The notes: generated by a model from the letters alone, not told the origin. Positions 25,744-44,343 are shown, counted from the first letter of the stretch. The stretch is DNA of 64,000 nucleotides from Candidatus Omnitrophota bacterium (GCA_021159015.1 JAGGSQ010000069.1:1332-65331); one strand, 5' to 3'. A program made the numbers and translations.

Positions 25744-27207
25744 TCAGAAACCAAACCAGCCCTCAACTGGAGAGGGGCCGTTTCCTATACCAATATGTTT
25801 AATGTGGCAAAATTCGAAAAACCCCGCTGGCCCCAAAACTCTGGCCCAGCCACTTTGTTTCATACCTCCAAAAGGAGTAGCAGGAGACATCTCGGCAAAA
25901 GTATTTATCCAGACTGTGCCTGCCTGAGCTTTACGGGCTAAGTTTTCTGCCTGCGCCAGATCTGCGGTCCAGATTTGAAGAGTAAGGCCAGAGGGATTCT
26001 TCTCCAAAATTTCTTCCGCCTCTTCTGCTTCAAAACTCTTAATCATCAATACAGGAGCAAAGAACTCTTCCCATACCAACTCTCTCAACTCCAGTAAAGT
26101 GGGCAAATAAAAATTAGTCCCTTCCACCCTCCTGCCTCCGCTTATAATTTTAGCCTGAGCCTCCCCTACTAGTCTCTTTACTTTCTTATCCACTTCTTCC
26201 AGATAAGAAGAACTAATCAGCGCCGCCAGATTAGCAGAAGGATCCTGGGGATCACCTAAATGTATTTTTTCTACTTTTTCCTTTAGCATTGTTTTTACCT
26301 GAGAAAAGACTTCTTCTTCTATAAGCAAAAGACTAACCCCAATACATATTTGCCCCTGTTTCATAAACGCTGCCGCCAATATATTATCAACTGCTCTTTC
26401 TAAATGAGCCGATTTGAAAATAAACCCTACATTGCACCCTCCCAGTTCACAGATAATCTTCTTAGGGTGAGAGGCACTTTCCCGATATACCTGCATAAAA
26501 GTTTTGCGGCTGCCGGTAAAAGAAAGAATATCCACCTCACTCTGAGCTAAAGCCTTTCCTATCTTTTCCCCTCTTCCGCTGACTATATTAATAAGACCGG
26601 GCGGCAAATCAAGCTTGTCCAGAAATTGAGCCAGTTTAAGAAGGGAAAGGCTGGCAAATTCCGAAGGTTTTACAATTACAGCATTCCCTGCGGCCAGTGC
26701 GGCGGCTACACTAAATCCAAAAATCATCAGAGGCACATTGTAAGGAAGAATTATGCCTGCTACGCCATAAGGCTCATAAGTAAAAATATCCCACCCCTTT
26801 TGAGAAGCAGGAGAAACCACAGAAAGTGATTCTAAAAAAGAGGCATAGTATTTAAAACAATCAGCGGCCAGAGGGACATCAACAAAGAGAGATTCTTTCA
26901 TAATTTTACCCACATCTTTACTCTCTATTTCGGCAAGAAGGGAAAGATTATCCAGAATAGTCTCTCCTATCTGTCGCAAAGTTTGTGCCCGCGCAGAAAA
27001 AGGCGTATTTCTCCAAATGGCCAGGGCTTGGCGCGATTTCTCTAAAGCAAAAGCCAGGTCGCGCGCTTCTGTCTCAAACATATACCCTAATACTTCCCTC
27101 TTCGCCGCTGCCTCACAAACAAGCCTATTGTTACTCTTCCTAAATTCCCCTCCTACATAGTAGAGATATTCCTCCATAAAACCTCCTGCTGTTTTAGCCT
27201 TCGACAT
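25744..27207 (-). CDS. NAD(P)-dependent aldehyde dehydrogenase
   Basis: ALDH catalytic Cys in QGQICIGVS. Glu in ELGGCN. GSRKTF/SGRGEKIG NAD-binding region. 487 aa. Confidence 0.85.
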   Translation of the reverse strand: MSKAKTAGGFMEEYLYYVGGEFRKSNNRLVCEAAAKREVLGYMFETEARDLAFALEKSRQALAIWRNTPFSARAQTLRQIGETILDNLSLLAEIESKDVGKIMKESLFVDVPLAADCFKYYASFLESLSVVSPASQKGWDIFTYEPYGVAGIILPYNVPLMIFGFSVAAALAAGNAVIVKPSEFASLSLLKLAQFLDKLDLPPGLINIVSGRGEKIGKALAQSEVDILSFTGSRKTFMQVYRESASHPKKIICELGGCNVGFIFKSAHLERAVDNILAAAFMKQGQICIGVSLLLIEEEVFSQVKTMLKEKVEKIHLGDPQDPSANLAALISSSYLEEVDKKVKRLVGEAQAKIISGGRRVEGTNFYLPTLLELRELVWEEFFAPVLMIKSFEAEEAEEILEKNPSGLTLQIWTADLAQAENLARKAQAGTVWINTFAEMSPATPFGGMKQSGWARVLGPAGFFEFCHIKHIGIGNGPSPVEGWFGF

Positions 27208-27304: not shown

Positions 27305-28705
27305 TTAAAAAGTATACTTCAACTCGCAGACAATCTGATTGTTATTGCGATACTGGCCGTTAGAACCATAAGCCGGACCCCAAAAGTGATGATAGCCTAA
27401 GGTAAGCCAGAGATTATCCCGCATCTCAAACTTAGTCTTAAAAGAGACCCGTCCGTCGTTGTCGTCGCCATAAATTATCAGCACTTCCGGCTTAATCCTC
27501 TCATATACAAAGTCTGTGGCTACCTTAAGGGTAACGTAGCTTTCTACTTTATCCATAAGCCCGTAAGTATAAGAACTCAGAGCGTGTTTGCCTTTAAAGG
27601 TAGGGTTGTTATGAATAAACTGGGCAAACTGCAGAGAGAAAAGCCAGTTTGTAAAGTAATATTTATCAAATCCTAATACATAGGTATATTTGTCACTTCT
27701 TTCGGTGTAACTTCTGTGCCCCTGGCTGCCATAATAAGTAGGCTCATTACGCAAGTAAGCAAATTCTCCTCTCAACGTCAACCCTTTCAGGAGGCCGGCG
27801 TTGGTAAAAGACTTGTTGAAAGAAAAACCGATGAGCTGCATTAGCTTGTGCCGGCGGGAATAATAATAATTACCCTTAGGCATACCTAAGGCGGGAATCA
27901 GACCGCCGGTAATTACTACACCATCGGAATAGGTATAAGCACTGGTAGAATAACCATAAAGCCAGTTGAGAGTGTAGTCTATGCCGGCAAATATAGAACG
28001 CCAGCGCAGACCAACTCGCGAATTTTTCAGTTTAGAAGAAGGCCGGTAAATCGCCGTACTCATACTGCCGCCGGCGGCTTCCATAATGCTTTTTACCGTA
28101 TCAAAATCATTCACTGCTTTGAAAGCAAAGGTATCGCCGGCCTTAGCCGAACGCGAAGCTTCAAAGTCAGGAATCAAGAGAAACTGTAAAGTGGAATTCA
28201 GCCAGGGCGAATACTCCACCTTAATCATCCACAAAGGGATTCTGATATCGGCAAAGTCGGGCAGCCAGTAGCGGGTCAAATCAAAAGGCATAACCCGGTC
28301 TAAAAAAGGCAGGCCGTCGGCCTGGCCCCAAACAACTTGCTGTTTGCCAATTCTCACATCCAGCTGGTCTGAAATATAATCCAGGTAGCAGTCGCGCAGC
28401 CATTCTGTTCTCTGCGTAGTGCCGGCTTTTTCCTGATTTCTGTCAAACGCCCCCTCTCTTATGCCGTAGGCAAAATCGTAAAAATAGCGCGGATGCACAA
28501 AGAGAGTCCATTCGTCTGAGATGCGGTATTGCGCTTCTAAATCAAGCGTATTGCGGAAAGATGAAAGGAACTGATGAGAGTTGTCATTGTTAGTCTGGAC
28601 CCATACTTCGGTTTTAACATAGCTGGAATATTCAAAATTATTGCCGGTTTGAGCCGCCAGAACAGATAAAGGAAATAAAAAACAGAAAAGTAATAGCTTC
28701 TTCAT
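27305..28705 (-). CDS. outer-membrane beta-barrel protein (DUF1302-like)
   Basis: Signal peptide MKKLLLFCFLFPLSVLAAQT. Aromatic-rich with alternating hydrophobic pattern. C-terminal ...CELKYTF, ending in the terminal Phe typical of OMPs. Confidence 0.6.
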   Translation of the reverse strand: MKKLLLFCFLFPLSVLAAQTGNNFEYSSYVKTEVWVQTNNDNSHQFLSSFRNTLDLEAQYRISDEWTLFVHPRYFYDFAYGIREGAFDRNQEKAGTTQRTEWLRDCYLDYISDQLDVRIGKQQVVWGQADGLPFLDRVMPFDLTRYWLPDFADIRIPLWMIKVEYSPWLNSTLQFLLIPDFEASRSAKAGDTFAFKAVNDFDTVKSIMEAAGGSMSTAIYRPSSKLKNSRVGLRWRSIFAGIDYTLNWLYGYSTSAYTYSDGVVITGGLIPALGMPKGNYYYSRRHKLMQLIGFSFNKSFTNAGLLKGLTLRGEFAYLRNEPTYYGSQGHRSYTERSDKYTYVLGFDKYYFTNWLFSLQFAQFIHNNPTFKGKHALSSYTYGLMDKVESYVTLKVATDFVYERIKPEVLIIYGDDNDGRVSFKTKFEMRDNLWLTLGYHHFWGPAYGSNGQYRNNNQIVCELKYTF

Positions 28706-28720
28706 TTTCTTACCTCCTTT

Positions 28721-29599
28721 TTACCAGCGGGAACGCATTAAGGCTTTTACGGTAAAATTATATTCACTAACCCCCTGGTCGTACTTTGTATCTTTCATCA
28801 AAATATCAGTGCGGTGGCCGGTCCGCAAATCTTTACACTCTAAAGACATCTGAGCAGGATATTTCTTATCGCCGGCTTTAGTCCAGACCCATTCCCGAAA
28901 AAGCGTCTTAAACAGCTTCCCGTTTTTATCGTAATACTCCTCAAAAATGCCGCCGCCGGTATCTTTATCTATCCACACCTTTCTTTTGGCATAATACCAG
29001 TGCGGCCTTTGGGGATAGCATTCTATAATAAAACACGGCTTGCCGGCGAGTTTAGTTTCTCCTGTTGCTTCAAACTTGTAGCCTTTAAAATTTTCTTCCC
29101 CAACTAATTTATAACTTTCATCTTCAAAACGGCGGGTAGACACCTCTTCTACGGTCATATCCGAGCCCAGAAAAGCATCGTCATTCTGAGAAGCAGAAAT
29201 CTTTCTTACCTTCTTAAGGGAAGGCAGCCAGAGCCAGACATCCTGCTCTCTTTTGGCATCTTCATAAGTCCAAGTTAGAACCGCTAATCCTTTAAGCGCT
29301 GTAGGGTAAGTAAAAGCTACGATATCTTTGTAAGAAATTCCCTCCTGACCTCCTTTTATCATCCGCATTCTTTTCCATATTCGTTTGCGCGTAAATCCAC
29401 TGCGGTCTACATATAAAACCTCCCCTATCTGCATATAATCACGGGCGAAAAAGGAATATTTGTTGTAGTAGGCAATGCGCATAATCTCATCGGCACTCAT
29501 TCCCTCCTGCGGTCGGTAAACTTTATAGTATTCCAGATTGGCCGCAAAAACTAAACTGCCAGCAAACAGCATTCCCCACAAAAGTCCTAGTTTTTTCAC
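28721..29599 (-). CDS. LolA-like outer-membrane lipoprotein-sorting / lipid-carrier protein (DUF1329-like)
   Basis: WLWLPSLKKVRKISASQNDDAFLGSDMTVEEV is characteristic of the LolA-like proteins encoded next to MMPL exporters. The likely start is the GTG (VKKLGLLWGMLFAGSLVFAANL signal peptide) at 29599, overlapping the MMPL stop. The ORF track extends the start to 29704. Confidence 0.6.
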   Translation of the reverse strand: MKKLGLLWGMLFAGSLVFAANLEYYKVYRPQEGMSADEIMRIAYYNKYSFFARDYMQIGEVLYVDRSGFTRKRIWKRMRMIKGGQEGISYKDIVAFTYPTALKGLAVLTWTYEDAKREQDVWLWLPSLKKVRKISASQNDDAFLGSDMTVEEVSTRRFEDESYKLVGEENFKGYKFEATGETKLAGKPCFIIECYPQRPHWYYAKRKVWIDKDTGGGIFEEYYDKNGKLFKTLFREWVWTKAGDKKYPAQMSLECKDLRTGHRTDILMKDTKYDQGVSEYNFTVKALMRSRW

Positions 29600-32046
29600 A
29601 CTCCACCTCCTGTTTTGAAAAAACTTACTTTTCTTCCCCGTCTCTCTACCCCCTTTTTTAATCTTCTCTTTACTCTTCCCCACAAAAAGGCCGGCTTTAG
29701 CCACCAGACCAGCAACGGAACCATTACTAAGGAGATAACCATATTAAGCACCAAGGACAGGCACAAAATTATCCCCAGCTTTGCCTGAAAGAGAATAGGA
29801 GAAAAAACCCATACCAGTATCCCCAGAGAAACTACTGCCCCACTGAAAAATACCGCTTTGCCGCTGGTAATCAAAGTATAATGGAGTATATCCTTATAAG
29901 TATGACGTTTCTGGCGCATCTCATCATACAAACGAGCCAGAATATAAATGCCGTAATTAATCCCCAGCCCTTCGCTTAAAGAGACCAGGGGAAGAATCTC
30001 GGTGGTAATAGAAATCCCCAGAAATCCCAAAAGAGAAAAAATAACTAAGTTGCTAAGAACAAGAGGCAGAAGCAGAAACCAGCCGGCAGTAAAAGAGCGG
30101 TAAATAAAGCTGACATAAAAGAAAATTAAAAGAGAGATAAAGAGAGCATTGGGAAGAATAGTTTTTTTAATGATATCGTTTATGGCATAGAAAATGCCAA
30201 TGTCTCCCCCCGCATAGAGAAATTTTATATCCTTGAATTTATGCTTTTGAAAGTACTGATGCGTTTTCTCCACCGCTAAATTTACCGTAGTTGATTTATG
30301 GTCGCGGAAATCAAATTTAATATTGCAGGATTTCTCGTCGCGGCTGATTAGATGGTCATAATCAGAGGGAAATCCCGAAAGCGTATAAAGAAACCAGTAT
30401 TGGGCAATAACATCGTCTTGGGAAGGAATTTTAAAATATTCTCTCTTGCCAGCAAACATAAACATATTTAAAGCTTTGACTGCATCTACCACGGACAAAG
30501 ACGATCCGACTTGTAGCACCTGCTGCTGGAGATACCTCTGAAAACTATCGATAGCCCTTAATTTATCAGCTTTAAGCAAAGAAGAGGAGGATTTTGCTAG
30601 AATATAGTAGGAATTTGTTCCTCCGAAATTGTCGTTAATAAATTTCTCGGCCCGGTTATAAGGGCTGTGGGGATAAAGATAACTTGAGCCTTCTGTATTG
30701 TCGCCAATAACTATTTTTTTTATCCCTCCCAGAGAAAGCAGGCCGGCAATAATGAAACCCGTAATTAAAATTGTGCCGGCTCTCTTATTCAAAGAGAAAA
30801 TACTTATCTTCGCCAGCATCCTATCTACCCACAGATGCCGTTCTTCTCTTTCCACGGCCAATATTTTAGGCCGGTGCAAAAATGACAAAACACAAGGCGT
30901 AAACATAAAGGAAGTGAAGAAGTTGGCGAAAATGCCCAGCCCGCTGGCCAGAGCCATACTTTTTATGGTAGAAAGAGGCACCATTACCAAAGATAAAAAC
31001 CCGAACCCGTCTGTAAATACACAGGCGAGCCCCGGCAGAAACAAATAGGCCATGGTATTTACTATAGCGTGCTTGCTTTTCATTTTAGGGCTGCGCATTT
31101 CCTCATAATAACGCTTAAGTGTGTGCACAGAATGGCTGATACCTAAAGAAAGAACAATAAAGGGCACCAAGATTGTAGCCGGGTCAAGCCGCAGGCCTAG
31201 AAGTTTCATTGTTCCCATACCCCAGATAGTAGCCATAGAAGAATCTAAAAGAGGCAGGAGTATGCCGCGGCGGGAACGAAAGGTAAAAAACAGAATAAGG
31301 GAAATCACCAGCATACTTACTGCCAATACCTTAAACATAGAAGGAAGGTAAAAATTAAGCCAGCCTTCTAAAATAGGACGGCCGGCAATATAAATCTCGG
31401 TGTTTTTGTCTTCATATTTTTTCTTCAACTTCTGCAAAGTAGAGAATATATAGCTGGTTTTTACTCCCGAATTAAAATCTACCTGGATAAAAGTGGACCG
31501 GAAATCACGCGAGACCATTTTGCCGTAAACATTGGGGTTAATCTCAATTTTTCTTTTCAATTCCTCCCTGCCTCTTTCGTCCTGAGGCGGATAACGCAAA
31601 AGGCGTTCTACAAAAAAACCCTCTTCGTCAGCTACAATATGTTTTATATGGCGGCTGGCTAAAGAATAAACGCGGCTGATATTTACACCCTTAACCAAAT
31701 ACAAATCTTCCGTTAAAGATATCAGCTTATCCAAAAACTTAGCATTAAGAATTGTCCCTTCCTTAACCCGCAGGGCCAAAGATACCTGGTTAAGGCCGCC
31801 GAAGATATGCGTAAGCTGGTGCTGCACTTCTACAAAGGGATGTTTCTGAGGCAGGAAATCTTCCAGGTGTGTTTCTACCTTTATCGTACCTAACACACTA
31901 AGAAAAAATACTGTTAACGCTGTGCAAGCTATAATGATATATATCCGCAGATGCACTATCCTGCGTGCCAGTCTATACTGCCAGCTACTGGTTAGACCTC
32001 TGCTTTCGCCTGAAGCATACTTTATTCTACCGGTGCCTGCTCCCAT
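29596..32046 (-). CDS. MMPL/RND-superfamily exporter (HpnN-like putative lipid exporter)
   Basis: 816 aa with two blocks of ~6 TM helices separated by large periplasmic domains, as in MMPL/SSD-type RND pumps. The start overlaps the upstream aldolase gene by 25 nt. Confidence 0.75.
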   Translation of the reverse strand: MGAGTGRIKYASGESRGLTSSWQYRLARRIVHLRIYIIIACTALTVFFLSVLGTIKVETHLEDFLPQKHPFVEVQHQLTHIFGGLNQVSLALRVKEGTILNAKFLDKLISLTEDLYLVKGVNISRVYSLASRHIKHIVADEEGFFVERLLRYPPQDERGREELKRKIEINPNVYGKMVSRDFRSTFIQVDFNSGVKTSYIFSTLQKLKKKYEDKNTEIYIAGRPILEGWLNFYLPSMFKVLAVSMLVISLILFFTFRSRRGILLPLLDSSMATIWGMGTMKLLGLRLDPATILVPFIVLSLGISHSVHTLKRYYEEMRSPKMKSKHAIVNTMAYLFLPGLACVFTDGFGFLSLVMVPLSTIKSMALASGLGIFANFFTSFMFTPCVLSFLHRPKILAVEREERHLWVDRMLAKISIFSLNKRAGTILITGFIIAGLLSLGGIKKIVIGDNTEGSSYLYPHSPYNRAEKFINDNFGGTNSYYILAKSSSSLLKADKLRAIDSFQRYLQQQVLQVGSSLSVVDAVKALNMFMFAGKREYFKIPSQDDVIAQYWFLYTLSGFPSDYDHLISRDEKSCNIKFDFRDHKSTTVNLAVEKTHQYFQKHKFKDIKFLYAGGDIGIFYAINDIIKKTILPNALFISLLIFFYVSFIYRSFTAGWFLLLPLVLSNLVIFSLLGFLGISITTEILPLVSLSEGLGINYGIYILARLYDEMRQKRHTYKDILHYTLITSGKAVFFSGAVVSLGILVWVFSPILFQAKLGIILCLSLVLNMVISLVMVPLLVWWLKPAFLWGRVKRRLKKGVERRGRKVSFFKTGGGV

Positions 32047-33008
32047 AATTTGAAAGTCCTTACTAATACCGGATACCAGCGGCTCATCTTAGTAAAATCA
32101 CCTTTAGTCTTTACCTTGCCTTGCGTAGAGGCGACAAAAGCATCCAGCTTGCGGTTGAAAACTTTTTTTAATATATCCGCGCGGCCAATGATTAAGAAAT
32201 CCACCCCTTCTGCTTCCTCGCTTACCTTAACTATGCGCCCAGCCTGGTAATGAAAGCAAACTGCCCTGCCGCTATCCTGGTCTTTAACCGCCAGCCGGCA
32301 GGTCAAATCATATTTCCTTCCCAGCTCCTGGGCCTGAGGGTCATTGTTAACCAATTCCGCCAGTTTAGCTATATGCGCGGGTGAAAGCAGTTTGTACTTC
32401 TTTAACGATCCCGGCTCCTGAGGCAGCTCTCTATCCGCGGCCAAAGCGGTGCGGGACTGAGATTTCAGAATCAGGTTTATTTTTGCCTGCTCCTCTAAAA
32501 GTTCAATGAGGCTGAACGCTTCTTTGAAATCCTGGCCTATGCTTACCACCCCGTGCTGTCCTAAAACTACTATATTGGAATCAGCCAGCGCCTCTAAAAC
32601 CGGTGCAATATGGGTAACCGTAGGAGTCTCCTGAGGAACAACTTTTATTTCTCCCAAATAAAATTTCGCCTCAAAAGAAAATATGTCCAGCCTGCCAAAA
32701 TAATGAAAAAAGGCTACTGTATAAGGAGAATGCGAATGCAGGACGACTTTGACGTGAGGGAATTTACTATGTATGCCTAAATGCAAACCCTTCTCGCTGG
32801 TAGCTTCTCCTTTTCCCTCCAAAACATTGCCCTTGCTGTCAACCATAAGAATATCTTCATAAGAAAGCTCTCCCAAATAACAGTCGTGAGAAGTTATAAG
32901 AATACCTTCGTCTACTTTTAAAGAAATATTGCCGCTTCTGGCGCTAACTAAACCCCGTTCATTCAGGCGGCGGGCCCAATAGATTATTTGTTCTTTTTGC
33001 TTATCCAT
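32022..33008 (-). CDS. class II aldolase/adducin-fold protein fused to a C-terminal SCP2-like sterol/lipid-carrier domain (Ald2/DrdA-like)
   Basis: N-terminal half has RRLNERGLVSARSGNISLK and the HSHSPY metal-binding histidines of class II aldolases. C-terminal ~110 aa (DFLIIGRADILKKVFNRKLDAFVASTQGKVKTKGDFTKM) resembles SCP2. I placed the start at MDKQKEQ (ATG 33008). Confidence 0.65.
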   Translation of the reverse strand: MDKQKEQIIYWARRLNERGLVSARSGNISLKVDEGILITSHDCYLGELSYEDILMVDSKGNVLEGKGEATSEKGLHLGIHSKFPHVKVVLHSHSPYTVAFFHYFGRLDIFSFEAKFYLGEIKVVPQETPTVTHIAPVLEALADSNIVVLGQHGVVSIGQDFKEAFSLIELLEEQAKINLILKSQSRTALAADRELPQEPGSLKKYKLLSPAHIAKLAELVNNDPQAQELGRKYDLTCRLAVKDQDSGRAVCFHYQAGRIVKVSEEAEGVDFLIIGRADILKKVFNRKLDAFVASTQGKVKTKGDFTKMSRWYPVLVRTFKLWEQAPVE

Positions 33009-33486
33009 CTCCTTCCTCCTTAATGAGATCAAGCCGAGGCTTCTCGACCTCCCCCAGAAGACTTTCTGCATACATAGGACGTCCGGCTAAAGTAGAAGCA
33101 TCACTATCAGAAAATTTATCTAAATCCAGCTCTGTCCCTGCTGCAAATTTCACATCCACATTGTGATATTTAGCTAATTCATATACATACAAAGAACTAC
33201 TTAAACACAAATATCCATCGTCCATCTTCTTCTGATAAAGAATCAGAAGCTCCTTTATTTTTTGCTGGTAAAAAAGATGCCCCAGCATATTATCAGTACA
33301 ATATAAAAATTCTAAACCAGCAGCAGATAAAGCATCTCTATTCCATCCCAGTCCCAATAAATACGGCCGCAACTCAGGATTTACCAATACGAACCCCCTA
33401 TGAAATTTCTCTTTCAAATAAATAACGGCCTCTTCAGACAAAATTCCCCAAAACAAAACAGCTTTTTTTATATTCGTTATTTCCAT
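33001..33486 (-). CDS. truncated eIF2B/MtnA-like paralog (C-terminal Rossmann-like half only; catalytic motifs absent)
   Basis: ALSAAGLEFLYCTDNMLGHLF...IKELLILYQKKMDDGYLCLSSSLYVYELAKYHNVDVKFAAGTELD parallels the GADR...NKIGTY...VPFYVAA region of MtnA, but lacks the GADR Asp and the upstream CN(T)G Cys. 161 aa. Confidence 0.5.
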   Translation of the reverse strand: MEITNIKKAVLFWGILSEEAVIYLKEKFHRGFVLVNPELRPYLLGLGWNRDALSAAGLEFLYCTDNMLGHLFYQQKIKELLILYQKKMDDGYLCLSSSLYVYELAKYHNVDVKFAAGTELDLDKFSDSDASTLAGRPMYAESLLGEVEKPRLDLIKEEGDG

Positions 33487-34430
33487 TTCCTCTTATCGTT
33501 CAGGCGCAGCTCCTCCAGCCCTACCCAGCCGCTAATCAGTTCTTGGGGCACAATGTCAAAACTGGGATATATAGCCTCTATATTCTCTTTATCAGGTATA
33601 TTCTCTAAAAACATAAAAACTTCCTGCGGGGGACGCTCTTCAATTCCAACCTTTTCTATAGAAAAATCATAAGGATATTGTACAAAAGCATAGACAGGAA
33701 TGTTGTAGATGCCAGCCAGACAGCTTAAAGCATAAGTTCCAACTTTATTAATAATATCTCCCTGTAAATTCGCCCTGTCCGCGCCACAAACTACAGCGTT
33801 AACTTTTTTCTCAGCCATAACTTTAGCAACCTGGTTGTCACAGATAAGAATAGTATTTACCCCTGCTCGCTGCAACTCCCACGTAGTAAGACGTGCTCCT
33901 TGCAGATAAGGACGTGTCTCGCTAACATAAAACCTGTATTCTTTACCTAAATTCCTCAAAGCCTCAGCCAGATAAATTAGCTCCCCGTTAATATTACATA
34001 TGGTAAGAATAGAACTTTGCTGTGGCAAGACCTCAGCTAAGGCGGCGCAGCGCCTGCGGCGGGCTTTGTCAAAACCGTCCAAAAATGTGGCGATTATTTC
34101 AGATAATGGCTTATCTTCTCTCAAAGACTTTTTAAGAAGAGAGGAAAGAGAAAAAAAATCAAAGGTAGGACGCGTGGCTTTGAATTTCTTGGCCACCAAG
34201 TCCGCCAGAGTACTTTTATCCTGGTACTCCTCCTCTAGCAGCTGGCAAGTATAGAAATATAAAAGCACCTGGCCGAAGGCCCGTGTCTTCATCTCGCGCA
34301 GGCAAAACAGGGCATCTTCTAAATTAAGCACCTCCAGATACTTCTCTTCCCAGGGCAGAAGTGTCTCATCCAGAACCAGAATTTTTTTGCCCTGCATCCT
34401 GACTGGAAACGAAAGAGGTGAATTAAACAT
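33477..34430 (-). CDS. mtnA: S-methyl-5-thioribose-1-phosphate / 5-deoxyribose-1-phosphate isomerase (eIF2B-family, MtnA/DrdI-like)
   Basis: LVLDETLLPWEE at the N-terminus. TICNINGELIYLAEA with the catalytic Cys. SETRPYLQGARLTTWEL. CGADRANLQGDIINKVGTY with the catalytic Asp. Confidence 0.75.
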   Translation of the reverse strand: MFNSPLSFPVRMQGKKILVLDETLLPWEEKYLEVLNLEDALFCLREMKTRAFGQVLLYFYTCQLLEEEYQDKSTLADLVAKKFKATRPTFDFFSLSSLLKKSLREDKPLSEIIATFLDGFDKARRRRCAALAEVLPQQSSILTICNINGELIYLAEALRNLGKEYRFYVSETRPYLQGARLTTWELQRAGVNTILICDNQVAKVMAEKKVNAVVCGADRANLQGDIINKVGTYALSCLAGIYNIPVYAFVQYPYDFSIEKVGIEERPPQEVFMFLENIPDKENIEAIYPSFDIVPQELISGWVGLEELRLNDKRKWK

Positions 34431-35163
34431 CTGAATCTAAAACAAATTCGAATACTCCCTTAATCATTTTCTCCTGAGCCTCGAACAGCTTAAAATCAGA
34501 AAAACCTAATTCTCCGGTTATTAGATTATCGGAAGCCAGAAGCACCGCACAACTCTTTTTGCCGTAAAGGTTAGCCAGGGTAACAAAGGGACTGGTCACC
34601 ATATCCACAGCAATGGCCCCTTTGGCGATGTAAGAGTTGACTATTTCTTTTGCCTCCCGGAACAAAGCGTCTGTTGTCCATATGCCGCCTCTATGCACTT
34701 TGCCTTTTTTCTCCATAACTTTACACAGCTTATCTGACAAGTCTTTATCTACCGCAGGCGAGAAATCATCCTTGACATAATAACGCGTAGCACCATCTCC
34801 CCGCAGGATTTTATCGGCAATAATAAAATTTCCTATCTCAATATCTTCTCGCAATGCCCCGCAGGAGCCCAGCCGCACCAATATGTCTATGCCGGCATTA
34901 CAGAGAAGCTCGGTAACAAAGGCGGAGTCGGGAGAATAAAAGCCGCCGTTGCCTACGGTAATCTTTCTGCCCTTATAGAACCCTGTCCAGAAAGTATAGC
35001 CTAAGAAGGTAAAATTCTTCGTCGGCCTCTCCAGCATATCCAGGCACAATTTAGCTCTCTGCGGCTGGCCGGAGACAAGAGCAATCTTGCCAAAATCGCC
35101 TTCTTTGAACTGTAAGTGCTCCAGCAAATCTTTCGGTTTTAAGTGGACATCCCGCTGCATCAT
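34423..35163 (-). CDS. DeoD-type purine/5'-deoxynucleoside phosphorylase (PNP/UDP family I)
   Basis: GQPQRAKLCLDML...TGFYKGRKITVGNGGFY...VRLGSCGAL aligns to E. coli DeoD (GDPLRAKYIAE...TGTYKGRKISVMGHGMG...RVGSCGA). 246 aa. Confidence 0.75.
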   Translation of the reverse strand: MMQRDVHLKPKDLLEHLQFKEGDFGKIALVSGQPQRAKLCLDMLERPTKNFTFLGYTFWTGFYKGRKITVGNGGFYSPDSAFVTELLCNAGIDILVRLGSCGALREDIEIGNFIIADKILRGDGATRYYVKDDFSPAVDKDLSDKLCKVMEKKGKVHRGGIWTTDALFREAKEIVNSYIAKGAIAVDMVTSPFVTLANLYGKKSCAVLLASDNLITGELGFSDFKLFEAQEKMIKGVFEFVLDSDV

Positions 35164-35213: not shown

Positions 35214-36686
35214 TTAGACGTAAAGTTCGTCGGTTTGAGATGCTTTCTCAAAACGTGACATATTCTCCATATAAGAACGGAAGCAAAGCCCTACTAAAGG
35301 ATGATAAATCCTATTGTGCAGTATCCTTTCTACGCGTCCGGGCTTAGAATAGAATTCCCGCAAGGCCCAGGCTCCCAGCCTCCCAATAGCTTCCTGGGAC
35401 AAATGTTCAGTAGGAACCACAGGATGGTGAAAGTCCCAGGTTTTTAAATCGTCGAATTTGACCCAGCCTCTTTCTACATATTTAGGCCATATAGGAGAGC
35501 CAGGCATAGGCGTAAGATACTGTAGGGCGCAGATATCCGGGTCTATTCTGTCTACCGCTTCAAAACGCTTCTTTATTCTATATTCATCATCATTCTCAAA
35601 GCCCATCATCCAGGTAAGGACAGTAGCAATCCCTGCTTCTTTCAATTTAGCTACTGTCTCCTCTACCTGTTCTACGGTAATACCTTTGCCTAACTCCTCT
35701 AACTCTTCGTCCGTGGCTACCTCAATTCCCGCCAAAGCTAAAAAACAGCCTGCCTCTTTCATTTTAGGAAATAAATCTACATCCCGCAGGTAATAAGGAG
35801 CACGGCCTAAAAAGCACCAGGAAACCTTTTTGCTCAGACCCCGCTTAATCATATCCTCAATAAACTCTTCCATGCGCTGACGGGAGACATTGAAGCAGTC
35901 GTCCATCATGGTAACTACTTTTACCCCGAACTTATCGTGAAGAAGCTCCAGCTCGTCCGCTACGAGTTTGCCAGAACGAGCCCGAAAAAATCTTAAATCA
36001 GCGTTTCCCCGCGAGTCAAACTGCGACCACTCATAGCAAAAATTGCAACCGGCCGGACATCCCCGCGAGTTCCAGGTTTCTGTATAATGCTTCCAATAAT
36101 CATGCCCTACATATTTCTCCATAGGAAACAAATCATAAGCGGGCATAGGCAGTTCGTCCAGATTCTTTATTAACCCACGGTAGGAGGTAAGCACTATCTC
36201 TTCTCCCTCACGGAAAGCAAGACCTTTCACCTCTTTTACCTCTCTGCCGGACGCTATTGCTTCCACCAGCTCCACAAAGCTTATGTCCTGCTCTCCTACC
36301 AGACAATAATCAATCCAGGGGTTCCTCCTGAGAATCTGGCGCGGTGCAGAAGCATAAACCAAGCCGCCAGCAATAATAGTAATTTCGGGATACTTCTCTT
36401 TAACCAGCTTGGCTGCCTGATTATAACGGTAAACCACTGCCGCCCCTCCGGTAGTATGCAGAATATCTCCTATATGAATGATGTCCGGACGGGCTTTACC
36501 AATCTCCTCCAGCATCTGCTCGTTGCTCATTTCCCAGGCGCGACAGTCCAGAACCTGCAAAGCATATTCGGGATGCTTCTGGCGCAGAAGCGCGGCTATT
36601 TGCGCCTGCCCTATATTGGGCGCACGGTGTTTCCCCCAGGTTGACCAGGCACCTAAATTGGGCTGAAGAAACATTACTTTCATCAT
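35214..36686 (-). CDS. B12-binding-domain radical SAM protein (class B rSAM)
   Basis: N-terminal cobalamin-binding Rossmann-like domain, then the CPAGCNFCYEW CxxxCxxC rSAM cluster motif. 490 aa. Confidence 0.8.
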   Translation of the reverse strand: MMKVMFLQPNLGAWSTWGKHRAPNIGQAQIAALLRQKHPEYALQVLDCRAWEMSNEQMLEEIGKARPDIIHIGDILHTTGGAAVVYRYNQAAKLVKEKYPEITIIAGGLVYASAPRQILRRNPWIDYCLVGEQDISFVELVEAIASGREVKEVKGLAFREGEEIVLTSYRGLIKNLDELPMPAYDLFPMEKYVGHDYWKHYTETWNSRGCPAGCNFCYEWSQFDSRGNADLRFFRARSGKLVADELELLHDKFGVKVVTMMDDCFNVSRQRMEEFIEDMIKRGLSKKVSWCFLGRAPYYLRDVDLFPKMKEAGCFLALAGIEVATDEELEELGKGITVEQVEETVAKLKEAGIATVLTWMMGFENDDEYRIKKRFEAVDRIDPDICALQYLTPMPGSPIWPKYVERGWVKFDDLKTWDFHHPVVPTEHLSQEAIGRLGAWALREFYSKPGRVERILHNRIYHPLVGLCFRSYMENMSRFEKASQTDELYV

Positions 36687-36697
36687 AAACTCCTTTT

Positions 36698-38254
36698 TCA
36701 GTTTTTTATTCGGTTTTCTGCCATATGCTTCAATCTGCCTTCAGCAATCTTGCCGCTGCGCGTCTTGGGAAGCTCTTTCACAAACTCAAAGTAATGGGGG
36801 ATTTTAAAATGCGCCAGCTTCTTCTTCAAAAATTCTCTTAATTCTTCCTCTTTGACTTCTGTATCTTCTTTACTTACTATAAATACTTTGGGCACTTCTC
36901 CCCGCAAGCGGTCAGAAACACCCACAGCGGCACACTCCTGCACCGCCGGATGCTCGGACAAAGCTTTCTCTATCTCCCACAAAAAAACTATCTCTCCTCC
37001 TACTTTCAGCATCTGCTTCTTCCTTCCGGCAATGTAATAAAATCCTTTCTCATCTCTGTAGGCTAAATCGCCGGTGCGAAAAAAACCCTCTGGCGTAAAA
37101 GAGGCTTCATTTAAAGAGGGATTTTTATAATAGCCTTTGAATACGGCTTTGCCTCTGATTAACAACTCACCTACCTCGCCTTCTTTCACCTCCTCTCCTT
37201 CCTCATTAACAAGTTTTACTTCTACATCGGGCGAAGACACGCCGATACTCTCGATATTAGCAGAATCGGGCGGCGTAACAATGTTAGGAGGAGAAGTTTC
37301 GGTCATCCCCCAACCGTTGAGAAGTTTTGCCTGTGGACAAAGTTTGTGGAATTTCTTAAGCAAGCGCGGCGAAGAGGGAGCGCCAAAAACGACTACATAC
37401 CTCAAGGTTTTTAGATTAAATCCCTCCAAATCTTTAAGGGTAAACAGCGCTACATACATAGAAGGCACTATCCAGAAAAAGGTAATCTTAAATTGCTCAA
37501 TATTCTTAAGGAACTGGCGGGGAGCAAATCTTTCCATTAACACAACCTGCAGACCAAAATATACCATTAACAGAAAATACACCCATCCCCCTGCATGAGA
37601 AAGAGGAATAGCACAAAGAACATTATCGTTCTCATTGATATCGGAAAGGAAATACTTTACTTGCCGCGGCGAATACTCAAGATTGTCGTAAGTAATAACT
37701 ACGGCTTTAGGCTGGCCGGTGGTTCCGGAAGTATAAGAAATTATAGCCTCCTCACCCCGAGCATTGTCTATAAAGGCTCCTGCCTTTTCCTCTGCCCCGT
37801 TCTTTATCAGCTGAGAAAAACTCAAAAAATCACCCTCCCGAGTTTCTTGTGTTTCATCAACTAACACTATCTTCACCCCTGTATCTCTCTCCAGCCTGTC
37901 ATAATTTATATTGATACGCCTCCTGGCAATAAGGATATCTACCTGGGCGTGTTTCAAAATGCTTATTAATTCCTCCTCGCTCAACATAAAATCAAGCGGC
38001 ACAGCACAAAAGTGCAAAGAGAATATAGCCGTGTAGGCTACTATATACTCCCAGCTATTGGGAAGAAATATACCTATGCGTGCCGGTTGGCAAGGAGTTA
38101 ATTCCCAAAGGCCTGCCGCACACTTAAGGCCTAATTGGTGCAGCTGGCCAAAGGTTATTTTTTTCTCTCCTGAAATAAGAGCCACCTTATCAGGGAATAA
38201 TTTACTCTTATTTTTTAGAAGAAGAGTAAAATTAAAGATTTTTCTCTCTTCCAT
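36698..38254 (-). CDS. AMP-dependent acyl-CoA synthetase/ligase (adenylate-forming enzyme)
   Basis: YTSGTTGQPKAVV (AMP-binding P-loop), GWGMTETS, FRTGDLAY and PKTRSGKI motifs. 518 aa. Confidence 0.85.
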   Translation of the reverse strand: MEERKIFNFTLLLKNKSKLFPDKVALISGEKKITFGQLHQLGLKCAAGLWELTPCQPARIGIFLPNSWEYIVAYTAIFSLHFCAVPLDFMLSEEELISILKHAQVDILIARRRININYDRLERDTGVKIVLVDETQETREGDFLSFSQLIKNGAEEKAGAFIDNARGEEAIISYTSGTTGQPKAVVITYDNLEYSPRQVKYFLSDINENDNVLCAIPLSHAGGWVYFLLMVYFGLQVVLMERFAPRQFLKNIEQFKITFFWIVPSMYVALFTLKDLEGFNLKTLRYVVVFGAPSSPRLLKKFHKLCPQAKLLNGWGMTETSPPNIVTPPDSANIESIGVSSPDVEVKLVNEEGEEVKEGEVGELLIRGKAVFKGYYKNPSLNEASFTPEGFFRTGDLAYRDEKGFYYIAGRKKQMLKVGGEIVFLWEIEKALSEHPAVQECAAVGVSDRLRGEVPKVFIVSKEDTEVKEEELREFLKKKLAHFKIPHYFEFVKELPKTRSGKIAEGRLKHMAENRIKN

Positions 38255-40961: not shown

Positions 40962-42365
40962 TTATTCAGACTTTACTTTCAATACTTCGCGAATAAATTT
41001 TTCTCCTTCTCCCTGTGGATGGAGGCTTCTCTTGATATATATATCTTCCGAAGAAGATAAGTCTACTATATAGCTATGAGCTAAACGGTTGTAGCCTGCA
41101 TCATAGCATATTTCCACTTGAGGTTGTTTAATAAGGGGAGGGTTCTGAGCTACGACCATACCAATATAATTATTATTTAACTTTACTATTGTGCCTAGCG
41201 GCCAAACACCAATCAAAGTAAAGAATCTATCTAACAACACCGGGTCAAACAAGCGACCTTTTTCATTAACCATAATTTGGTAAATTTGCTCTACTAAAAC
41301 TTCACTTTTATAAGGACGCCGGCTACGCAACGCATCGTAAACATCGGCAATAGTTACTAAACGCGAAAGAAAATTCGGAGGGCGCAAAAATCTGCTCCTG
41401 GGATATCCTCCCCCTATTTTAAAATGCCGGTGGTGCTGAAAAGCAATCAAAGGTACGATCTTACCGAAACCTCCTCTCTGAATAAGTAGTTTCGCTCCTT
41501 CTATAGCATGACTTTTAATCCGTTCAAACTCAGCAGCTGATATTTCTGATTTACGGTTCAATAGGTACTTTGAGATATAAATCTTCCCTATATCATGCAG
41601 CAACCCTCCCAGAGTAACTTGCAACAGATTCTCTCCTTCCAACCCTAAACCGCGCGCTTGCAAATTAGTCAAAAGAGCTACATTCAAGCAGTGCACAAAT
41701 GTATAGTCATCGTGTTTTTTAAGAGAACCTATCGCAGAGAGGAAGTTAAGTTGCATGTTATCCTGGGTAACAATACTTTCCGCCATCGCTCGCCACTCCT
41801 CTCCCTGCGACTGCTTGCTAAAAAAATCACCAAAAGCTCCTTCTAAAGTCGCTAAAGACTTTTGGTACTGATTAAGATAAAAAACAAGCTGTTCCCGGAA
41901 GGCAGGAGAAGAAACGAGTTTCTCTTCCTGCGGTGCGTTTTTACTCCTGATTTTATCTGTCTCTATATGAATAATGCCTTTTTTCTTTAAGTATTGAGAA
42001 AAATCATCTCCTTTAAGAGAAATATTCTTGTCGCTGAGAATAATCAAAAATCTTTCTAACTCCTCTTTTGTCAGCCCTCTCTTTATCCGCAGAACTGATA
42101 AGGTACGGTTTTCGAATTCTTTTAGGAAATCTTTCAAGCGTAAGCTCAAATCAAAAAATATCTGGTTCTGATAAAAAACTTCATCTTTTATAAACCCAAT
42201 CTCTATTTCACTTTGTGTACCTAAGGCTACTCTCATCTTATCGTATAAACTGCTTATCTCTTCTTGCGCCCGCGGATGACTGCAAGAGTACATTTTCACC
42301 AGCTGCAAACAGGATGCCAGTTGTTTAACTATATATTGTATATTCTCGTGTTTACTTTCCGGCAT
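40962..42365 (-). CDS. HD-GYP domain protein (probable c-di-GMP phosphodiesterase) with an uncharacterised N-terminal domain
   Basis: LHDIGKIY (HD), AFQHHRHFKIGGGYP (HH...GYP) and ADVYDALRSRRPYK. 467 aa. Confidence 0.8.
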   Translation of the reverse strand: MPESKHENIQYIVKQLASCLQLVKMYSCSHPRAQEEISSLYDKMRVALGTQSEIEIGFIKDEVFYQNQIFFDLSLRLKDFLKEFENRTLSVLRIKRGLTKEELERFLIILSDKNISLKGDDFSQYLKKKGIIHIETDKIRSKNAPQEEKLVSSPAFREQLVFYLNQYQKSLATLEGAFGDFFSKQSQGEEWRAMAESIVTQDNMQLNFLSAIGSLKKHDDYTFVHCLNVALLTNLQARGLGLEGENLLQVTLGGLLHDIGKIYISKYLLNRKSEISAAEFERIKSHAIEGAKLLIQRGGFGKIVPLIAFQHHRHFKIGGGYPRSRFLRPPNFLSRLVTIADVYDALRSRRPYKSEVLVEQIYQIMVNEKGRLFDPVLLDRFFTLIGVWPLGTIVKLNNNYIGMVVAQNPPLIKQPQVEICYDAGYNRLAHSYIVDLSSSEDIYIKRSLHPQGEGEKFIREVLKVKSE

Positions 42366-44343
42366 GAGAAAGCGCCTTCTCCTCTATATTTTTTAAAGCG
42401 TTTGTAGCCTGTTTTATCAACTCTGCCTTAAAAACAGAAAATACTCTGCCTCGCTGTACAAACTCTCTTAAAATATCCGTGGCTTCTTCGATATGGTTTT
42501 TTTTGACTATTGAAATATTCTCTCTAATGAAGCTGTTGCACAAACCAAAAATATTAAACGGTAAAATAAGTTTTCGGAGATATTTTTTTGCTGCAACCTT
42601 ATCTGTCTTAAGCAACCCCCGTAAGGCTGCTTCCCGTACGGGGAGGTATTTATTCAGAACAAAGCGTGCGAAGAAAGAAGCATCAGCCAGGCCTTTTTCT
42701 GCCAGTATTTCTATTGCTTGAGCAAGCACAAACTCACGCCGGCGATAGAAATCCGCTATCCAGAGCAAGGCATTCTTGTTTTTTTCCAAAGGCAATTGTG
42801 CCAGAAAATTCAGATATTCTTTTACCCAAAAAATGTTATCTTTATTAGCCAACAGTTGCTGAGTGCGCCGGACAATAACTGGAGGGGAGGAAAGAGATAG
42901 AAATACTTTGTAGATATGCTCGTAAATAAGCTGGGGGTGACGCATAAGTCTATCCCAGAGACGTTCAATACCTCCTTCCATATTCTGCAAAATCCCACTT
43001 ATCACTATCTTTGCTTTCTGGCTCTTACCAGCCAGACTCAACAAATTATCTAACTTTTCCTTTAGAGCAGTACATACATAATTTACCATATTCTCTCCTT
43101 CTGTTCCTTTATGAGAACGCAGAGAAGAGAAAGTCTCCCATAAATTAGCTAAGCCCTCTATATCTTCCCGCTCTACCATTACCACTAATTCTCTTTTTAG
43201 TTCCTCTGCCAACCAAGGGCTTATATTAGGTTCTAAAAAAAGCATATCTAAAATCATATACAAATATTCCTCCTCTATTTCCTGAAGTTTTACTTCATAA
43301 TGATATTTAGGAACTATCTTGTCTAAAAAGGTCGTAAGTGAATCAAGAAAGCGACAATAGGAAGCAGAAATAAATTTCTCTGTGACAGTTTCTTGCATAA
43401 GCTGTTGGGCAGCTTCTTGTAAAGCATGCAGGCGCCTAGTGTCCATCTGCCTTAATTTCTTCTCTCCCTGAGGAGACAATTTCCCAAAGGGATTTTGTTC
43501 AGTAAGAAAGGCGATTTTTCTTAAAATATCTATATTAAAAGATTTGTCAGTAGAAATAAAATCAAAAAATGATGCTTCCAAATCAGTGCTGCTAATATCC
43601 TGCAGTAGCTTCGCTATCTTGTCCCATTCTAAATTTTCTTTCTTATCAAAATTTCTTCCCAGAAAAACTTTAAGGGCTATCTGCAAGAACTTACCCGTTT
43701 TATCAGGATATTTTTGCTGTAAATAACTTTTAACCTTATCCAACAAAGAAGATAAAGAGCGCGTTTCAATACCTGAGAGTTTCTTCTCTAAAAAATCCTC
43801 TTTCTCAAGCAGATATTCTATTTCCTCTCTGCTCACATTGATACTATCTCTGCTCTCTTTCCTAACCTCTTGGCTAAAAAAATCCCAAAATGCCTCAATT
43901 GCTTCTCCTTCACTATCTAAATAACGCTGATAATCAATCTCTTCTATCTTAGCGTTTCTTACTCTTTGGTTCTCAAGCATTCTTTTTGCTCCCCCCTCTT
44001 TCCATATTTCTCGTGGCGCAGAAGCAAGAATACTAGCTAATATTCTAATTTCTTCTTTACTAATCCCCCGCAGATTTATATGTAAACTTTCTATGCGCCG
44101 CTGATGCAGATAAAGACCCAAGAAGAAGCCTCTTTCATGTTTTATCTCTTCTCCGTTTACTATTATAGATTGGGGAGTAGCATAGATATCCAGAGAAGAA
44201 GCTAGAGAGCCAATCTGTTTCAAGTACTGGTAGAATTCCTCTATGGTCTTCTGGAAACTAGGATGCTGGGGAGGATACATAGCAATGCGGTTAAATAAAA
44301 CTCCAAAGTGGCGCGAGACTTCTCCTGCCCTTATCTTAGCCAT
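42352..44343 (-). CDS. large hypothetical cytoplasmic protein (663 aa), translationally coupled to the HD-GYP gene
   Basis: No recognisable catalytic motif. Helical and acidic. Its 3' end overlaps the HD-GYP start by 14 nt. Confidence 0.6.
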   Translation of the reverse strand: MAKIRAGEVSRHFGVLFNRIAMYPPQHPSFQKTIEEFYQYLKQIGSLASSLDIYATPQSIIVNGEEIKHERGFFLGLYLHQRRIESLHINLRGISKEEIRILASILASAPREIWKEGGAKRMLENQRVRNAKIEEIDYQRYLDSEGEAIEAFWDFFSQEVRKESRDSINVSREEIEYLLEKEDFLEKKLSGIETRSLSSLLDKVKSYLQQKYPDKTGKFLQIALKVFLGRNFDKKENLEWDKIAKLLQDISSTDLEASFFDFISTDKSFNIDILRKIAFLTEQNPFGKLSPQGEKKLRQMDTRRLHALQEAAQQLMQETVTEKFISASYCRFLDSLTTFLDKIVPKYHYEVKLQEIEEEYLYMILDMLFLEPNISPWLAEELKRELVVMVEREDIEGLANLWETFSSLRSHKGTEGENMVNYVCTALKEKLDNLLSLAGKSQKAKIVISGILQNMEGGIERLWDRLMRHPQLIYEHIYKVFLSLSSPPVIVRRTQQLLANKDNIFWVKEYLNFLAQLPLEKNKNALLWIADFYRRREFVLAQAIEILAEKGLADASFFARFVLNKYLPVREAALRGLLKTDKVAAKKYLRKLILPFNIFGLCNSFIRENISIVKKNHIEEATDILREFVQRGRVFSVFKAELIKQATNALKNIEEKALSHAGK

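Follow-up and report, generated by a model that had tools for sequence, protein, structure and literature searches.

Class II aldolases of the DrdA/Ald2 group, known from the DrdKIA system of Bacillus thuringiensis and the MtnP/K-MtnA-Ald2 systems of Rhodospirillum rubrum and Escherichia coli, act on 5-deoxyribulose-1-phosphate and on 5-methylthioribulose-1-phosphate (MTRu-1-P) in 5-deoxyribose salvage, or the dihydroxyacetone phosphate (DHAP) shunt. A phosphorylase, an MtnA-like isomerase plus an aldolase of class II together are the signature of 5-deoxyribose, 5'-methylthioadenosine (MTA) and 5'-fluorodeoxyadenosine processing (PMC6079011; PMC6302742). In Streptomyces cattleya, 5'-fluoro-5'-deoxyadenosine (5'-FDA) phosphorylase, 5-fluoro-5-deoxyribose-1-phosphate (5-FDRP) isomerase, a fuculose-type aldolase and fluoroacetaldehyde dehydrogenase convert the ribose C4'-C5' of a nucleoside derived from S-adenosylmethionine (SAM) into an X-CH2-COOH unit (PMC6079011; PMC6302742). 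Here we analysed a stretch of 64,000 nucleotides from a Candidatus Omnitrophota bacterium (GCA_021159015.1 JAGGSQ010000069.1:1332-65331), hereafter the window, in which one minus-strand gene encodes a class II aldolase fused to an SCP2-type lipid-carrier domain. For the Omnitrophota, a phylum that is widespread and uncultured, metabolism has been inferred nearly wholly from annotation. We confirmed that the fusion is real and conserved across Omnitrophota, and its operon resembles a recycling route for the by-products of radical SAM (rSAM) enzymes.

Gene and domain structure of the aldolase-SCP2 protein

The only open reading frame (ORF) of this region on the minus strand runs from 33071 to 32022. 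The original prediction implied a start at the ATG at 33008. This codon has AAGGAGGAAGGAG before it and shares bases with the stop codon that ends the upstream ORF, in ATGGATAA; the gene was therefore placed at 33008..32022, with a product of 328 amino acid residues (aa). Existing annotation calls this product only a "class II aldolase/adducin family protein".

The original prediction, made from the DNA sequence alone, had described a complete class II aldolase with a metal-binding His triad followed by an SCP2-like domain, and both parts were borne out. Aldolase_II (PF00596) matched residues 6-178 with E=2.7e-36 and 125.6 bits against a Pfam gathering cut-off of 22.2 (profile positions 1-182 of 183), and SCP2 (PF02036) matched residues 218-308 with E=5.2e-6 and 27.2 bits against a cut-off of 21.3 (profile positions 6-93 of 101). 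The AlphaFold2 model, computed from a multiple sequence alignment of 45 homologs, was a confident one of two folded domains, with a mean predicted local distance difference test score (pLDDT) of 89.8 and a predicted template modelling score (pTM) of 0.82. The linker was disordered, residues 187-198 having pLDDT below 50. In the model the N-terminal domain has the three-dimensional fold of the class II aldolase/adducin superfamily and the C-terminal domain has the alpha/beta fold of SCP2; when the whole model was compared with the PDB by Foldseek, only aldolases were present among the 50 matches listed. No membrane segment was predicted in the protein, which consists of two soluble folds throughout. 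A pTM of 0.82 for a two-domain chain points to a defined interdomain packing, and the model thus suggests that the SCP2 domain packs on the aldolase in a fixed arrangement. As is usual in the class II aldolase/adducin superfamily, the active form would be a homotetramer whose active sites lie at the subunit interfaces.

Spread and conservation of the fusion

The full-length protein was matched by 180 clusters in the protein database. Nearly all of the 120 listed homologs were 320-345 aa long, with a query coverage of 98-100%. PF02036 was precomputed for 76 of the 120, and the remaining 44 had the same length and the same 98-100% query coverage. A scan with one genome per species found relatives in 131 genomes. 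Recurrence of the single ORF across these 131 species genomes ruled out a frameshift or a merging of two genes as the origin of the fusion. The only gene that appeared to be split (P0122, locus L083) proved to be intact, with a run of N inside it in the scaffold. A triple fusion of an rSAM enzyme, aldolase and SCP2 (P0138, 694 aa, locus L082 590-2674) was set aside; its contig is 3.4 kb long with 2.3x coverage, and a truncated rSAM part of the Radical_SAM_N2/B12 type is joined to a truncated aldolase and SCP2, the internal domains being cut short. P0138 thus probably arose as a chimera during assembly, but a genuine protein of this kind would tie rSAM enzyme and aldolase together as a Rosetta-stone fusion.

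The named carriers are almost all Candidatus Omnitrophota. Dozens of records, many of them "binchicken" bins, are labelled uncultured Planctomycetia or Planctomycetales and carry the same cluster, and one Omnitrophota-type cluster (L022, JAIWAR010000017.1) is filed as a Methanosarcinales archaeon metagenome-assembled genome (MAG). The archaeal and planctomycete labels are likely the result of bin contamination and placeholder taxonomy.

Among 79 species-level sequences, the mean identity to the window protein was 52.9% for the aldolase domain, 53.0% for the SCP2 domain and 18.1% for the linker, which also varies in length across the alignment. In a distant clade the two domains were 43.5% and 43.1% identical, respectively. 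The fact that the two values match at both distances indicates that the domains evolve in lock-step as one functional unit; judged by sequence, aldolase and SCP2 are one integral, co-evolving protein. Eleven SCP2 residues were invariant in the 79 sequences, namely D223, F252, G257, F284, N285, A293, Q296, K298, W311, F319 and W322.

When the SCP2 domain was used in an exhaustive profile search of 1.84 billion representatives, only 94 proteins matched. The majority were the same fusion or its fragments, which makes this SCP2 sequence subfamily nearly private to the aldolase fusion; a few were stand-alone SCP2 proteins of 141-151 aa. The contig of one stand-alone relative was too short to inform on gene context. 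Stand-alone aldolases of 192-209 aa, 60-64% identical to the aldolase domain of the window, were found in two Desulfobacterota bins. They stop directly after the ELLEEQAK helix and have neither SCP2 nor the partner genes, and they may be remnants or may have arisen when just the catalytic module was transferred. Full-length aldolase-SCP2 genes of 45% identity were present in a Clostridia-labelled bin (L037 8521-9483) and an Elusimicrobia-labelled bin (L038 8036-8998) without any of the usual neighbours, so the fusion can occur outside the operon. The neighbours in L038 encode QueH, OsmC, a Na/H exchanger-EIIA protein and a Big_7-repeat protein.

The fusion had been called unusual by the original prediction. 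Literature searches for the fusion or its gene combination found nothing, and no paper combining "class II aldolase" with "SCP2" was found in the library searched. The aldolase-SCP2 fusion appears to be undescribed so far.

Catalytic residues and enzyme class of the aldolase domain

Residues E72, H91, H93 and H152 were invariant among the 45 aligned homologs and among the 79 family members. From HMMER alignments, we take them to be the counterparts of the catalytic Glu and the His triad of E. coli FucA (E73, H92, H94 and H155). Further residues invariant in the 79 sequences were G26, N27, S29, L45, H76, E113, Q126 and G153. The top solved sequence match of the domain was DrdA (6btd/6btg; E=1e-17, about 26-28% identity). 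In the HMMER alignment to DrdA, F112, beside the invariant E113, and P129 occupy the positions which we take to be those of the FucA pocket aromatics Tyr113 and Phe131. The core belongs to a short subgroup of about 180 aa, without the C-terminal tail of E. coli FucA.

The best curated models were NF040649, the Methanocaldococcus jannaschii-type FucA (112 bits, cut-off 250), and the aldolases PRK08333 and PRK08660 (104 and 97 bits). The other L-fuculose-1-phosphate aldolase equivalogs were further from their cut-offs (TIGR01086, 45 against 400; PRK06833, 70 against 264), and no fucose isomerase or fucose kinase gene was found near the aldolase gene in the window. The models of MtnB, the dehydratase of methionine salvage, scored 56.8 against 137 (TIGR03328) and 64.6 against 226 (PRK09220, over the N-terminal half only), and no MtnC/D/W/X-type methionine-salvage gene was found in the window. 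By the curated thresholds, the enzyme is neither FucA nor MtnB. It would catalyse a retro-aldol reaction, in the manner of DrdA/Ald2, rather than a dehydration or decarboxylation, and it may belong to their group as a divergent member.

The operon in the window

As shown in Table 1, the aldolase-SCP2 gene is the sixth gene of a tight minus-strand operon of 10 genes, which overlap or are spaced by less than 100 bp. The order is acyl-CoA ligase, B12-binding rSAM enzyme (B12-rSAM), PNP_UDP_1 phosphorylase, isomerase, 161-aa ORF, aldolase-SCP2, resistance-nodulation-division (RND) protein, LolA-like/DUF1329 protein, DUF1302 protein and aldehyde dehydrogenase (ALDH). No convincing internal terminator was found in the operon, the promoter and terminator scan being at chance level, and no riboswitch or other RNA element controlling it was found.

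Table 1. Coordinates of the aldolase-SCP2 gene, its domains and operon partners in the window, and of related loci elsewhere.
Feature	Coordinates	Strand	Evidence or remark
AMP-forming acyl-CoA ligase of the fatty/aryl-acid type (gene 1 of the operon)	36698..38254	-	Pfam AMP-binding E=1e-78
B12-binding rSAM enzyme (BchE/HpnJ-like)	35214..36686	-	Pfam B12-binding + Radical_SAM
Hexameric-type purine nucleoside/MTA phosphorylase	34423..35163	-	Pfam PNP_UDP_1 E=5e-33
MtnA-like (5-substituted ribose-1-phosphate) isomerase	33477..34430	-	Pfam IF-2B E=7.4e-38
161-aa degenerate half-copy of MtnA/eIF2B-like Rossmann domain	33001..33486	-	translationally coupled on both sides
Aldolase-SCP2 fusion gene	32022..33008	-	328 aa + stop; ORF, Shine-Dalgarno, Pfam, homologs, two-domain model
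Class II (metal-dependent) aldolase domain, residues 1-182	32463..33008	-	
Interdomain linker, residues 183-205, disordered and variable	32394..32462	-	pLDDT, identity, alignment length variation
SCP2-fold domain, residues 206-328, C-terminal LWxx(A/V)PVE conserved	32025..32393	-	
Accessory exporter trio	27305..32046	-	Pfam + NCBIfam
HAE3/MMPL-type RND	29596-32046	-	sterol-sensing-domain-like match
LolA-like/DUF1329 protein	28721-29704	-	
DUF1302 outer-membrane protein	27305-28705	-	
Hydrolytic (non-acylating) ALDH	25744..27207	-	Pfam Aldedh E=3.5e-112
Stand-alone aldolase loci	L069 9986-10564; L077 9935-10564		
Type B example loci	L012 70-12435; L083 1-10884		core directly downstream of type II polyketide synthase/fatty acid synthase-like set

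The nearest PDB entry of the ligase was the Archaeoglobus fulgidus long-chain FadD-1 (E=4e-67), followed by oxalate-, o-succinylbenzoate-, feruloyl- and 4-coumarate-CoA ligases. The B12-rSAM is BchE/TokK-like, with 218 bits on the NCBIfam BchE model (cut-off 481), 142 bits on HpnJ and the cluster motif CPAGCNFC at residue 210. Nearest to the phosphorylase were Bacillus adenosine/purine phosphorylases and the MTA phosphorylase of Sulfolobus solfataricus (1jds, E=4e-28). The isomerase scored 165-173 bits on the NCBIfam MtnA models, under their cut-offs of 271-279, and its nearest PDB entries were the methylthioribose-1-phosphate (MTR-1-P) isomerases 1t9k and 2yrf. It keeps TICN (Cys145) and GADR (Asp218), presumably the catalytic Cys and Asp of Bacillus subtilis M1Pi.

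No Pfam match was obtained for the 161-aa ORF of the window. Its positional orthologs match IF-2B (E=1.8e-7 in L012 and E=4.4e-9 in L070), and the ORF itself is related to the neighbouring isomerase (BLASTP E=3e-4), with both the TxCN and the GADR motifs absent. This half-isomerase is kept at the same position across the family, including the clade of 40% identity to which L070 belongs, and from its sequence it is possibly a non-catalytic partner subunit.

The ALDH contains Glu254 in ELGG and Cys288 in GQIC; its best matches were non-acylating families, and it reached no curated equivalog. With a nucleophilic Cys, a hydrolytic Glu and such matches, it should yield the free acid, the flux running from aldehyde to acid. 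The same features disfavour a synthetic direction in which the ALDH, as an acyl-CoA reductase, would feed fatty aldehyde to the aldolase.

Gene order in related loci

Synteny was examined in 80 loci, each count being restricted to loci with enough flank. An MTR-1-P-isomerase-like gene with a kinase or phosphorylase gene is the clustering pattern of the DHAP shunt; the isomerase adjoins the aldolase in 66 of 71 loci, the phosphorylase is present in 39 of 67, and the window has both. The ALDH gene was found in 58/65 loci and is the usual immediate downstream neighbour, its start typically lying 10-30 bp past the aldolase stop. The B12-rSAM was present in 32 of the 39 well-flanked loci and the acyl-CoA ligase in 34/60. 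Synteny persists down to 40% identity.

Two types of locus were distinguished. Type A comprises the window and the entire 40%-identity clade, in which the order is PadR, CoA ligase, phosphorylase, isomerase, half-isomerase, aldolase-SCP2, ALDH and B12-rSAM. Type B, with about 15-20 loci or Omnitrophota species, has neither ligase nor phosphorylase. Its order is ketosynthase (KS), second KS, acyl carrier protein (ACP), PF04199 cyclase, SRPBCC polyketide cyclase, major facilitator superfamily (MFS) transporter, ketoreductase (KR)-type short-chain dehydrogenase/reductase, B12-rSAM, Amidohydro_2 protein (nearest to aromatic-acid decarboxylases), class-IV aminotransferase-fold protein, isomerase, half-isomerase, aldolase-SCP2 and ALDH. 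Phosphorylase and class-IV aminotransferase never occurred together (0/39), and one or the other was present in 35 of the 39 loci. The core common to both types is the B12-rSAM, the isomerase with its dead paralog, the aldolase-SCP2 and the ALDH. Clusters of an antiSMASH-type "ladderane-like" class have been reported from Omnitrophota MAGs (PMC9902471), and the type B loci may be among them.

Proposed pathway and role of the SCP2 domain

We propose, with a probability of roughly 0.5, that the protein acts as the aldolase in a DHAP-shunt-like module linked to an rSAM enzyme and carries a functional domain for a hydrophobic ligand. The pathway would begin with a SAM-derived 5'-deoxynucleoside, which we infer to be 5'-deoxyadenosine from the rSAM enzyme of the operon or a 5'-substituted analogue, and which the adenosine/MTA-type phosphorylase would cleave by phosphorolysis. 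Probably together with its dead half-paralog, the MtnA-like enzyme would convert the resulting 5-deoxy- or 5-substituted ribose-1-phosphate to the ribulose-1-phosphate, which the N-terminal metal-dependent aldolase domain would split into DHAP and an aldehyde. An aldehyde product is argued for by the tight linkage to a hydrolytic ALDH, which would oxidize it to the acid; in type A clusters the acyl-CoA ligase would then form the CoA thioester. 5'-Deoxyadenosine, released by radical SAM enzymes, inhibits them (PMC6079011), so it would be a coherent design for one operon to encode both a B12-rSAM and a dedicated means of disposal.

The module would serve an rSAM pathway for a hydrophobic metabolite. 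SCP2 most likely binds a hydrophobic ligand from this pathway, which would be either the hydrophobic substrate or product of the rSAM enzyme or the aldehyde partner in aldol cleavage. A tetrameric aldolase would be the scaffold on which SCP2 holds this molecule, much like the SCP2 domains that serve alkylsulfatases or UbiJ/UbiT. The invariant aromatics F252, F284, W311, F319 and W322 are compatible with a hydrophobic cavity. What makes a hydrophobic ligand plausible is that lipid or aromatic functions accompany the module without exception, either the fatty/aryl-CoA ligase or the KS-KS-ACP-cyclase-SRPBCC-KR-MFS set with its aromatic-acid-type decarboxylase, and sometimes the RND, LolA-like and DUF1302 genes. 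The domain may be a UbiJ/UbiT-like chaperone of the rSAM substrate or product, an acceptor of a hydrophobic aldehyde, or a ligand-free cap or docking module.

Several points weigh against the proposed pathway. Simple cleavage of 5-deoxyribulose-1-phosphate to acetaldehyde gives SCP2 no obvious need, and DrdA/Ald2 do without it. About one third of the loci, those of type B, have no nearby phosphorylase or kinase, and there the scheme does not account for the source of the sugar-1-phosphate. Instead of an acetyl-CoA synthetase, the module has a CoA ligase of the medium/long-chain or aryl type. No protein of the module reaches any curated NCBIfam equivalog cut-off. The aldolase is far under that of NF040649, so that its chemistry may be other than that of an aldolase, and a 3-oxo-tetronate-4-phosphate decarboxylase model scores almost equally (99 bits).

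There are two other views of the SCP2 domain. In one, which is possible and which we rate clearly below our proposal, the pathway is plain by-product salvage and SCP2 is a ligand-free structural cap or a module for oligomerisation or docking; it might replace the FucA C-terminal tail over the aldehyde pocket, or dock the ALDH or the rSAM enzyme. The C-terminal tail of E. coli FucA presumably closes over the aldehyde pocket, and in the model the SCP2 domain packed on the short aldolase core could extend or cap that pocket. Conservation equal to that of the catalytic domain, the invariant aromatics and the hydrophobic gene company speak for a real SCP2 function tied to a hydrophobic molecule. 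The other view, which we find somewhat less probable still, is that the substrate itself is lipidic or aromatic. The rSAM enzyme would adenosylate a hydrophobic scaffold of the polyketide or lipid type, the phosphorylase would remove adenine, the isomerase and the aldolase would trim the ribose to -CH2-CHO while SCP2 grips the tail and the aldolase cuts the sugar head, and ALDH and ligase would give the acid and its CoA ester. This would be a way of building carbon chains from SAM that is so far undescribed. Adenosylation is carried out by HpnH in the hopanoid pathway and by MqnE in the futalosine pathway, yet no adenosylating radical SAM enzyme is known from the B12-binding class, to which the BchE/TokK-like enzyme of the cluster belongs. 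One scheme would cover the SCP2 fusion, the order from ALDH to fatty/aryl-CoA ligase and the lipid, polyketide and exporter company, and phenylacetaldehyde dehydrogenase models give good scores with the ALDH. There are also weak matches to HpnG (phosphorylase, E=5e-11 to 1e-15), HpnJ (the rSAM score given above) and HpnN (RND, E=2.5e-14), but all of these are far under the cut-offs, and the window contains no squalene-hopene cyclase, HpnH or MqnE-like gene. The 5'-substituents for which the hexameric phosphorylase and MtnA folds are known are small. The fluoroacetaldehyde pathway is a precedent in which carbons of the SAM ribose serve as a C2 unit (PMC6079011).

Two further readings are improbable. 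That the N-terminal domain is not an aldolase, being instead MtnB, an OtnC-type decarboxylase or an epimerase of the superfamily, is hard to reconcile with the linked hydrolytic ALDH, which implies an aldehyde product. The MtnB models scored below the aldolase models as well as below their own cut-offs, no enolase-phosphatase, dioxygenase or MtnW/X gene lies nearby, and the four-carbon acid-sugar kinase and isomerase genes of a tetronate pathway are lacking. Much the same low standing falls to the suggestion of the original prediction that SCP2, encoded directly upstream of an MMPL exporter, hands a lipid to it or anchors a salvage enzyme at the membrane machinery. In the window the aldolase gene does overlap with its 3' end the RND gene, after which come the LolA-like and DUF1302 genes, a minority of related loci have this trio too, and DUF1302/DUF1329/RND sets have fatty-ester fitness phenotypes in Pseudomonas (bioRxiv 10.1101/2020.07.04.188060). 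The fusion, however, is universal while the trio is present in only 9 of the 39 well-flanked loci and in variable positions: in most loci that carry it, it lies past the ALDH gene, and in the window it lies between aldolase and ALDH. In most genomes it is the ALDH, not an exporter, that follows the aldolase, and the protein has no predicted membrane segment. By its distribution the trio is a mobile three-gene exporter cassette, and in the window its insertion seems to have separated the aldolase from the ALDH that usually adjoins it. MMPL adjacency, on which the functional argument of the original prediction rested, is therefore local to the window and does not characterize the family. The original interpretation was correct in part: salvage fits the phosphorylase, MtnA-like isomerase, ALDH and B12-rSAM neighbours, and the lipid and aromatic gene company makes a hydrophobic ligand plausible, whereas anchoring at membrane machinery and hand-over to the exporter are improbable.

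Other genes of the window

A lipoate/glycine-cleavage block (44397-50298, minus strand) encodes lipoyl synthase (LipA), an LplA/LipB-type ligase, two glycine dehydrogenase subunits and the T-protein. As LipA is a radical SAM enzyme, it would be a second source of 5'-deoxyadenosine 8-10 kb from the operon. Two minus-strand ORFs of 663 and 695 aa (42352-44343 and 52999-55086) have no significant Pfam domain, the first with a sub-threshold match to DUF7700. An RnfC-like subunit (8297-9622, minus strand; Complex1_51K, RnfC_N and 4Fe-4S) heads five overlapping co-directional ORFs, the others lying at 4837-8300. RnfC alone was identified by domain; the five are probably an Rnf complex, which fits an anaerobic lifestyle.

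Significance and comparison with known systems

The aldolase-SCP2 protein is a piece of a phylum-wide, tightly conserved module that joins 5'-deoxynucleoside (DHAP-shunt) enzymes, a B12-rSAM, an ALDH and lipid or polyketide machinery. If SCP2 binds a pathway intermediate, this could be the earliest known example of a physical coupling between by-product salvage and hydrophobic biosynthesis. An aldolase that cuts a lipid-tailed sugar phosphate would be the more interesting outcome, should the substrate itself prove lipidic. As a soluble protein of 328 aa, the fusion offers a testable handle on the product of the "ladderane-like" KS/B12-rSAM clusters from anoxic environments.

With DrdA/Ald2 the aldolase has in common the class II fold, the His triad and the catalytic Glu, as well as clustering with an MtnA-like isomerase and a phosphorylase and a logical link to the disposal of rSAM by-products. 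It differs from them in its identity of only about 26-28%, in F112 and P129 at the positions of the aldehyde-pocket aromatics and in its SCP2 domain, which the described enzymes do not have. Its gene also stands amid those of a B12-rSAM, an ALDH, a dead isomerase paralog and lipid or polyketide enzymes, in contrast to a three-gene unit. The short archaeal-type FucA (NF040649) and PRK08333/PRK08660 have the same core of about 180 residues without the long E. coli FucA tail, but the window protein scores under half of the cut-offs, has no fucose-pathway genes nearby and has SCP2 in addition. The enzyme order is identical to that of the S. cattleya fluorometabolite pathway (nucleoside phosphorylase, MtnA-like isomerase, class II aldolase and ALDH), and the two are likened by this order (PMC6079011; PMC6302742). 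The window has a B12-rSAM in place of a fluorinase/chlorinase-type gene, and the S. cattleya aldolase is not fused to SCP2.

Unlike the known SCP2 systems (Thermus SCP2, 2cx7; the C-terminal domain of alkylsulfatase; UbiJ/UbiT; SCPx/MFE-2), the domain described here has a sugar-phosphate aldolase as its partner, is unusually conserved and belongs to a sequence subfamily nearly confined to the fusion. The hopanoid side-chain system (HpnH, HpnG, HpnJ/HpnR and HpnN) has a similar cast of PNP_UDP_1 phosphorylase, B12-rSAM, RND protein and a carrier fold of the sterol/triterpenoid type, whereas the isomerase, the aldolase and the ALDH have no counterpart in it. Hopanoid genes were sought in the window and none was found, the cyclase and HpnH being absent nearby; the resemblance, seen in sequence matches, would be a lead only. 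What is new here is the combination of the two domains, the dead isomerase paralog, and the context of rSAM, ALDH and lipid or polyketide genes.

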